From the sequence record PP925842.1: 64,000 bases of DNA. One strand, written 5' to 3'. This DNA comes from Escherichia phage KookSpook. A model generated the notes under the pieces. It searched no databases. It saw only the letters and a list, made by a program, of their open reading frames with translations, and was not told the DNA's origin. Below, piece by piece: positions 9,905 through 10,087 of the stretch (its first letter is position 1; each line of letters starts with the position of its first letter). Both the position numbers and the translations under genes were made by a program.

Positions 9905-10040
9905 TCTTGAATGCAAATCATTCTCACTCGCATTTCACTATCTAAATGAGAATCATTCCACTTCCTAAATAATTCTTGTTCCATTCAGTAAATGTGAATC
10001 ATTATCATTTGCATTTCACTTCTTAAATGAGATTGATTCT
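9905..10040. repeat. iteron-like imperfect tandem repeats
   Basis: gcatttcact at 9931 and 10011; taaatgWgaWtSatt at 9943, 9989, 10023. Confidence 0.5.
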
Positions 10041-10087
10041 TATTATCATTCGTATTTCGGCAAGCAGGGCAAATTGCCCTGCGCTTT

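Follow-up and report, generated by a model that had tools for sequence, protein, structure and literature searches.

Positions 9905-10085 of the Escherichia phage KookSpook sequence (record PP925842.1) lie in a non-coding stretch of 1.65 kb (9626-11273), between the last rightward open reading frame (ORF; 9401-9625) and the first leftward one (11274-12164), and carry short repeat units followed by a palindrome. All positions refer to the window, the whole stretch of 64,000 nucleotides that was analyzed; it belongs to a T5-like phage (Demerecviridae), begins at the left genome end of relatives, the nearest records being about 86-87% identical, and ends before the right end of the genome, which would be about 110-120 kb long. 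Judged by homology, the segment is almost certainly the orthologue of the core of the non-coding injection stop signal (iss) of phage T5, Repeat Region 3 of the left terminal repeat. The element is already known from T5, and the copy in the window is another orthologue that differs only trivially. We consider it very probable that this orthologue of the iss core combines an array of putative protein-binding units with a palindrome, palindrome J, that carries the major nick site.

Relationship to the T5 injection stop signal

The T5 record AY587007 lists palindromes C-J, direct repeats A-D, inverted repeats C'/D' (hereafter pal, DR, and IR) and a "major single-stranded nick 1, 7.9%", and in a second T5 record, AY543070, the homologous DNA is annotated as "injection stop signal (iss)" with a "major DNA single-chain interruption". 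When the non-coding stretch was compared with the T5 left terminal repeat, we observed 85% identity over 99% of its length, and the pairwise alignment of the stretch with T5 gave a mean column identity of 91%. Every T5 feature from palC to DRD8 maps onto the window in the same order (Table 1), and by this transfer of features the coordinates 9905-10085 match the T5 block from DRC1 to nick 1 almost to the base. The place in the genome agrees as well, since the dmp-like gene, A1, and A2 lie upstream of the iss in the window as they do in T5; the end of the terminal repeat is predicted by homology at about 10554. Homologues of the non-coding stretch were found in about 540 Demerecviridae records, and most relatives match it at at least two places per record.

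The iss was sequenced and described in T5 (Heusterspreute et al. 1987, Gene 52:155) and has been compared across 25 T5-like phages (Davison 2020, bioRxiv 10.1101/866236); that comparison and other papers treat it as a cis-acting site in an untranslated region, common to all T5-like phages. The likeness between the two copies extends to palC, palD, IRD'-spacer-IRC', the DRC/DRE units with palE-I, palJ, the nick octamer, and the DRD array, which stand in the same order, at 85-91% identity, and in the same place downstream of the pre-early genes. Three differences were noted. T5 has five DRC-type units, whereas the window has four, one 23-nt unit fewer; palindrome J reads GCAGG(G)CAATTGCCCTGC in T5, whereas in the window it has perfect 9-bp arms around a central A; and the DnaA-like boxes of the right arm of the long inverted repeat are all one-mismatch sites in the window, whereas T5 has one consensus box.

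Table 1. Features at and around the iss orthologue, in positions of the window
Feature	Position	Strand	Sequence	Remarks
dmp-like gene	1-735	-		PHROGs
A1, "DNA transfer protein"	1869-3533	-		PHROGs
A2, "DNA binding protein"	3911-4327	-		PHROGs
palC terminator hairpin	9631-9655	+	GACGGGGAGCTAATCCCCGT, then TTTTT	Ends the rightward pre-early operon; left edge of the non-coding stretch
T5 palindrome D, LexA/SOS-box-like	9767-9786		TACTGTATAAATATACAGTA	19/20 match to TACTGTATATATATACAGTA
IRD'-spacer-IRC' arm of the long-range inverted repeat (I1)	9769-9900			Partner 5891-6022; 132 nt, 74% complementary
Two 23-nt direct repeats (D10; T5 DRB1/2)	9794-9816, 9855-9877			Each with two DnaA-box-like 9-mers
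T5 DRC copy 1	starts 9905			Feature transfer through T5 alignment
T5 DRC copies 2-4	9940-9964, 9985-10015, 10021-10051			Feature transfer through T5 alignment
M1 unit copy 1	9908-9922	+	TGAATGCAAATCATT	Weaker copy; inside T5 direct repeat C copy 1
M2 unit copy 1	9920-9936	+	ATTCTCACTCGCATTTC	3-copy 17-nt repeat family D8
M1 unit copy 2	9943-9957	+	TAAATGAGAATCATT	AAATGA-N3-TCATT quasi-palindrome; T5 direct repeat C copy 2
M1 unit copy 3	9989-10003	+	TAAATGTGAATCATT	T5 direct repeat C copy 3; family-wide conserved block starts here
M2 unit copy 2	10001-10017	+	ATTATCATTTGCATTTC	Family D8; conserved in alignment A2
M1 unit copy 4	10024-10038	+	TAAATGAGATTGATT	T5 direct repeat C copy 4; 35 bp after copy 3
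M2 unit copy 3	10042-10058	+	ATTATCATTCGTATTTC	Family D8
Palindrome J	10064-10082		GCAGGGCAA-A-TTGCCCTGC = GCAGGGCAAATTGCCCTGC	19 nt, perfect 9-bp arms; T5 palindrome J
Nick octamer	10077-10084	nick in -	CCCTGCGC	Context of T5 "major single-stranded nick 1, 7.9%"; feature transfer through T5 alignment
T5 direct repeat D, first six copies	10088-10311	+	TGTGCRAATCCGAC	Starts 10088, 10134, 10160, 10191, 10272, 10297
T5 direct repeat D, three further copies	10640, 10675, 10812		TGTGCRAATCCGAC	

Organization of the repeat units

Two kinds of unit make up the array: M1, a 15-bp quasi-palindromic unit present in four copies, and M2, three copies of which are interleaved among them. Jointly they build two 49-nt direct repeats (9910-9958 and 9991-10039; D5) that are 80% identical and 81 bp apart. 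A single inverted M1 copy is found at 9997-10011, and the decamer gcatttcact occurs at 9930-9939 and 10011-10020. Within the 64 kb, matches to the M1 15-mer with at most two mismatches are confined to the 9905-10085 region. As the null for self-match scores we used 300 dinucleotide shuffles of the 206-nt region 9885-10090; the best ungapped direct self-match scored 24.0, while the shuffles gave 8.7 +/- 1.4 with a maximum of 15.5, so that the direct repetition beats all 300.

A preliminary description of this DNA had reported imperfect tandem repeats next to a palindrome. Units and palindrome are indeed present where it placed them, but "tandem" is the wrong word, as the start-to-start distances of the M1 units are 35, 46, and 35 bp and the copies are interspersed rather than head to tail. 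The refuting test that it named, a formal repeat finder, gave a divided answer: Tandem Repeats Finder reported no array in 9905-10085 even at its lowest threshold (minimum score 30), while a dispersed-repeat finder (families D5 and D8) and the shuffle test both recovered the repeats. The "repeat array" said to adjoin the palindrome corresponds to the TGTGCRAATCCGAC copies of T5 direct repeat D. Nine of these repeats (10088-10824) span the predicted terminal-repeat boundary, with six copies on the left side and three on the right; candidate roles for them are terminase recognition, end recognition, or a site for the A2 protein.

Palindrome J carries the octamer of the major nick

Palindrome J by itself is only marginally unusual: an equal inverted match was reached in 5 of the 300 shuffles of the 206-nt region, and about 22 perfect palindromes of its class occur across the window. 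It is significant because it is conserved and because it carries the nick site. Its right arm together with the following GC forms the octamer CCCTGCGC, and this makes the setting of the major 7.9% nick site the best reading of palindrome J. According to the T5 annotations, nicks 1, 2, and 3 all show CCCTGCGC on the plus strand and nick 4 shows CCCGCGC; AY543070 puts the break in the minus strand, leaving 5'-pGCGCAGGG. By this annotation the nick in the window is predicted in the minus strand between 10084 and 10085, with the same 5' end.

The octamer occurs in the window four times on the plus strand (2192, 10077, 24697, and 40643) and once on the minus strand (6550), against an expectation of about 0.26 per strand. 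The flanks of the copies at 24697 and 40643 are nearly identical to those of T5 nicks 2 (18.3%) and 3 (32.6%), which identifies them as orthologous sites. The window thus resembles T5 and its major single-chain interruptions (7.9, 18.3, 32.6, and 64.7%) in having the same octamer on the same strand at orthologous places (10077, 24697, and 40643). The nick sites differ among themselves in that only the 7.9% site lies in a long perfect palindrome adjoining a repeat array, while nick 3 lies in a different hairpin. As for the remaining copies, the one at 2192 falls inside A1 and the one at 6550 is on the opposite strand; a nick-4-type CCCGCGC is found at 897.

In relatives, the stem of palindrome J is present in 19 of 19 Markadamsvirinae of alignment A2 (the window counted) and lost in all three Sugarlandvirus sequences of that alignment. 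Its center is 0-1 nt in Tequintavirus and a loop of 9-10 nt in Epseptimavirus. The sequence CCTGCGCTT(T/A)TGTGCRAATCCGAC is invariant across the 22 relatives compared, and so is the first TGTGCRAATCCGAC copy, beside the nick (22/22). In the phages Elw, Lindwurm, slur09, and GSP044, palindrome J reads GCGCAGGGCAATTGCCCTGCGC, that is, two complete nick octamers in opposite orientations, an arrangement that could allow nicks on both strands a few base pairs apart (a staggered double-strand break).

Palindrome J could instead be merely a second plus-strand rho-independent terminator behind palC, its overlap with the nick being incidental. A simple terminator scan found in it an 8-bp stem with six G-C pairs, a 3-nt loop, and the tail GCTTTTGTGC; T5 nick 3 likewise overlaps an annotated terminator, and the record of phage Lindwurm has a terminator annotated on palindrome J. 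The run of T residues after the palindrome is only four bases long, however, and the strong palC terminator already lies 410 nt upstream, with no above-chance promoter between palC and palindrome J. The hairpin is missing from Sugarlandvirus, whereas CCTGCGCTTWTGTGC does not vary in the alignment, and a terminator would leave the repeats unexplained. We consider this explanation unlikely.

Promoter-like matches occur at chance level (7 versus 6.5 expected), and those inside the array reach 9/12 only. No Rfam family matched 9300-11400 in an E-value scan, and ARAGORN found no tRNA or tmRNA. The "operator cluster" offered in the preliminary description is compatible, in the loose sense of a group of sites for a sequence-specific DNA-binding protein, with a motif that is kept, a copy number that varies, and pairing that does not covary; no regulated promoter is detectable.

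Conservation of the units among T5-like phages

The family comparison covered 22 loci from three genera, Tequintavirus, Epseptimavirus, and Sugarlandvirus. The M1 consensus is TAAATG(A/C)GAATCATT, a 6-3-6 quasi-palindrome, and the M2-type unit reads ATTMTCAYTYGCATTTC. M1 positions 2-4, 9, and 15 are invariant at 97-100% (87-90 of 90 copies). Whole units have been gained and lost, so that copy number varies between 2 and 6, and a 23-nt unit is what separates T5 from the window. The two M1 units nearest the nick keep their 35-bp spacing in 17 of the 22 relatives (at most three mismatches) and stand at a constant distance from the left arm of palindrome J; the best-conserved part of the element runs from the third M1 unit through the first D repeat.

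The pattern of indels bears on the possibility that small proteins are encoded here. The span 10023-10231 is overlapped by ORFs of 47-61 aa, and "hypothetical protein" coding sequences are annotated at this place in GEC_vB_N5, SEL21, and Uniso31. Indels of 3, 6, 7-8, and 23 nt distinguish the relatives, and several of these are non-triplet; no ORF is conserved, and the curated T5 records keep the stretch non-coding. Because the indels of 7-8 nt in the palindrome J loop and of the 23-nt unit are not triplets, coding is ruled out, and we give this explanation practically no credence.

What the conservation preserves also bears on a second alternative, in which hairpins or cruciforms extruded from the nested palindromes (T5 palE-palJ) would jam translocation through the tail or membrane channel. 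Secondary structure is among the mechanisms proposed in the literature. The fold of 9885-10095 as single-stranded DNA is better than that of shuffled sequences (z = -3.1; 1 of 200 equals it), and the palindrome J stem survives the change from 0-1 nt to 9-10 nt loops, as a hairpin would. The alignments point the other way. For the predicted palH-like and palJ hairpins, a covariation test on 23 sequences, 22 of them distinct, showed 0 compensatory changes in 20 pairs, and three palH-type pairs (35-70, 40-65, and 45-60) are unpaired in 11-20 of the 22. The last unit reads GAATCAAT in Epseptimavirus versus GATTGATT in Tequintavirus, a direct rather than an inverted arrangement that destroys the palH stem and retains the unit motif. 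Furthermore, palindrome J is missing in Sugarlandvirus, the AT-rich stems are short and imperfect, and ejection in vitro can be complete, which argues against jamming by structure. By these comparisons conservation acts on the motif and not on base pairing, and since the motif is kept without covariation in the pairing, an array of protein-binding sites is favored over a cruciform; extrusion itself we regard as rather unlikely.

At about columns 66-73 of alignment A2 (window 10031-10038), Epseptimavirus has, in place of the Tequintavirus 8-mer GATTGATT, the exact reverse complement of it, AATCAATC. This swap looks like a quasi-palindrome template-switch event.

DnaA-like boxes and the question of a replication origin

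The segment starts 5 bp past the right arm (9769-9900) of a long-range inverted repeat that corresponds to the IRC-spacer-IRD / IRD'-spacer-IRC' pair of T5. The 23-nt direct repeats within this arm contain the 9-mers that Davison 2020 interprets as DnaA boxes. In the window they read TTATTAACA (twice), TTATCAACA, and, on the complement, TTATCTACA, and each of the four is one base off TTWTNCACA. The sole consensus DnaA box of the iss-linked inverted repeats, TTATCCACA, is in the left partner arm (5915-5923). That the consensus box is found only in the left arm bears on the DnaA model of Davison.

The preliminary description had likened the repeats to origin iterons, that is, to units that bind an initiator and form an origin together with DnaA-like boxes and AT-rich DNA. 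The repeats do sit in AT-rich (69% A+T) non-coding DNA, four DnaA-box-like 9-mers lie 30-110 bp upstream, and the Davison 2020 preprint calls the arrangement "reminiscent of oriC". These are also the points of likeness with iteron origins such as P1 oriR, pSC101, and lambda ori, in which short repeats stand in AT-rich non-coding DNA near DnaA-like boxes. Iterons, however, are at least three direct units of about 17-22 bp in the same orientation and at regular spacing, while the M1 units are irregularly spaced at 35/46/35 bp, include one copy in inverted orientation, and form no array for Tandem Repeats Finder, and the nearby DnaA-like boxes all depart from the consensus. No initiator gene is adjacent: in a PHROGs search the flanking ORFs matched only phrog_6973, phrog_4379, phrog_8583, and phrog_5271, all of unknown function. 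Cumulative GC skew turns at about 11-12 kb, where gene orientation switches too. In T5 the origins were mapped close to the genome center, and the replication genes are not on the DNA of the first-step transfer (Davison 2020). Taken as an explanation for the repeats, an origin is very unlikely, and we conclude that the element is most probably not a replication origin; the comparison with iterons is unsupported at an iss orthologue whose units are non-tandem and irregularly spaced, in a family whose origins are mapped elsewhere.

Resemblance to sites for Fur and LexA

A further possibility is that Fur-box-like units, a near-consensus LexA box, and DnaA-like boxes provide a landing pad for abundant host proteins that halt or anchor the entering DNA. 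In its full form the iss would be a composite decoy of high-affinity host sites, made up of the array (9908-10058), the LexA boxes at 9767-9786 and 6005-6024, and the DnaA-like boxes between. We hold the landing pad to be improbable and assign the composite decoy the same low standing.

The resemblance to Fur sites was scored only by counting matches to the consensus. Of 13 positions in the unit core AATGAGAATCATT, 12 agree with the Fur-box core AATGATAATCATT, and 9907-10053 contains five matches to GATAATGATAATCATTATC that overlap one another and score at least 13/19, among them pairs offset by 6 bp at 9988/9994 and 10029/10035. None of 2000 composition-matched shuffles attained five such matches, and over 19 phages of the three genera the density of Fur-type matches is 30 per kb here versus 1.8 per kb outside, a 17-fold difference. 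The array is like the Fur-box clusters of E. coli (Chen et al. 2007, PMC2189734), in which 19-bp matches overlap with 6-bp offsets over 19-142 bp (about 150 bp here); it differs from them in that the matches are moderate (13-15/19) and no promoter overlaps them, and the resemblance is one of sequence only. The same study showed that Fur sites predicted by consensus can fail to bind. No single match in the array exceeds 15/19, a score that is equaled or surpassed in coding DNA at other places in the window. The window's strongest Fur-consensus matches (16/19 and 17/19; GGAATTGATAATCATTATCATCATC) are at 105-129, inside the dmp-like ORF near the left genome end, and a similar GATATTGATAATCATTCTCATT site is found 600-820 nt upstream of the nick in several relatives. 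Sites for IHF and CRP were compared with consensus by eye, gave poor matches, and were dropped.

The LexA-box match of 19/20 at palindrome D is the only such site in the 64 kb and lies about 120 bp upstream of the array. The motif CTGTAT-N4-ATACAG was found in 26 of the 27 T5-like loci checked, a set that includes duplicate T5 records and Sugarlandvirus loci; it is absent in HMD-P2. A weaker LexA-like copy, CACTGTATAAGTATACAGGG, is present at 6005-6024 in the partner arm of the long inverted repeat. LexA cleavage cannot be a requirement for restart, given that T5 forms plaques on recA hosts, and this counts against the LexA part of the idea. The Davison 2020 preprint makes no mention of LexA or Fur resemblances, and our literature search found no paper linking T5 first-step DNA with LexA.

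That the stop occurs without phage protein synthesis, yet not in vitro, does point to a host factor. On the other hand, protein binding inside the cell is expected to ratchet the DNA inward rather than to stop its entry. If the idea held, capture by host proteins would set or stabilize the first-step pause, or would couple the pause to iron or SOS status, and the repeats that first drew attention to the segment would be Fur sites.

A candidate structured RNA downstream

Farther along the non-coding stretch, a structured RNA of roughly 190 nt that carries no annotation may be encoded on the minus strand of 10985-11225. It would be read leftward from a near-consensus sigma-70 promoter (TTGACA-17-TATCAT with TG; 11217..11189) into a long nested hairpin, behind which comes a terminator-like hairpin (11004..10992). 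Its predicted fold has an energy of -66 kcal/mol (z = -6.7), and RNAalifold on 10 T5-like loci gave three compensatory pairs together with strand-specific G-U pairs. The region is 93% identical to T5, versus about 85% for the adjoining DNA. The candidate is present in only 143 of the about 540 T5-like records, as a single copy in each, and is almost never annotated; the Rfam scan described above gave no match for it.

Proposed role in two-step DNA transfer

We propose that the M1/M2 array may serve as binding sites for a dimeric, sequence-specific DNA-binding protein on the paused DNA. The binder could be a pre-existing host or virion factor that helps to hold the DNA, or it could be the A2/A1 proteins, which would restart transfer; the units would accordingly contribute to the pause or to the restart. 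A phage nicking activity would cut the minus strand at CCCTGCGC, which overlaps palindrome J, and so create a structural discontinuity at the same spot. The element, a cis-acting site, sits at the edge of the approximately 8% of the genome that enters the cell first. This proposal builds on demonstrated homology, position, family-wide conservation, identity of the nick site, and conservation of motif over pairing.

Published observations on T5 give it its frame. In vivo, transfer stops without phage protein synthesis, while in vitro ejection with FhuA alone can be complete, and together these findings implicate a host component. Both A1 and A2 are required for transfer to resume, and pauses during ejection in vitro correlate with nick positions. 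A 2026 preprint on T5 shows that both of its terminal repeats can be engineered.

Several points weigh against a protein-binding array with a nick site as the working part of the iss. T5 mutants deficient in nicking are viable, which makes it improbable that the stop depends on the nick. In Sugarlandvirus the M1 array is down to two or three copies, which implies that most M1 copies are dispensable. The absence of covariation is weak evidence, as the sequences are few and closely related, and the palindrome J stem is invariant where it is kept, so the covariation test is uninformative on it. The iss has been defined by position (a shear point at about 7.9%) and not by mutation, and we found no experiment in the literature that assigns a function to these particular units. 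Finally, Davison 2020 favors the DnaA boxes of the neighboring IRD'-spacer-IRC' as the stop.

The element marks the boundary of the two-step DNA delivery of T5, the mechanism of which papers from 2026 still call poorly understood. For this step the comparison yields a minimal module that is conserved, a pair of 15-bp units at 35-bp spacing whose distance to the nick octamer and to the first TGTGCRAATCCGAC repeat is fixed, and A2, Fur, LexA, and DnaA emerge as candidate binders.

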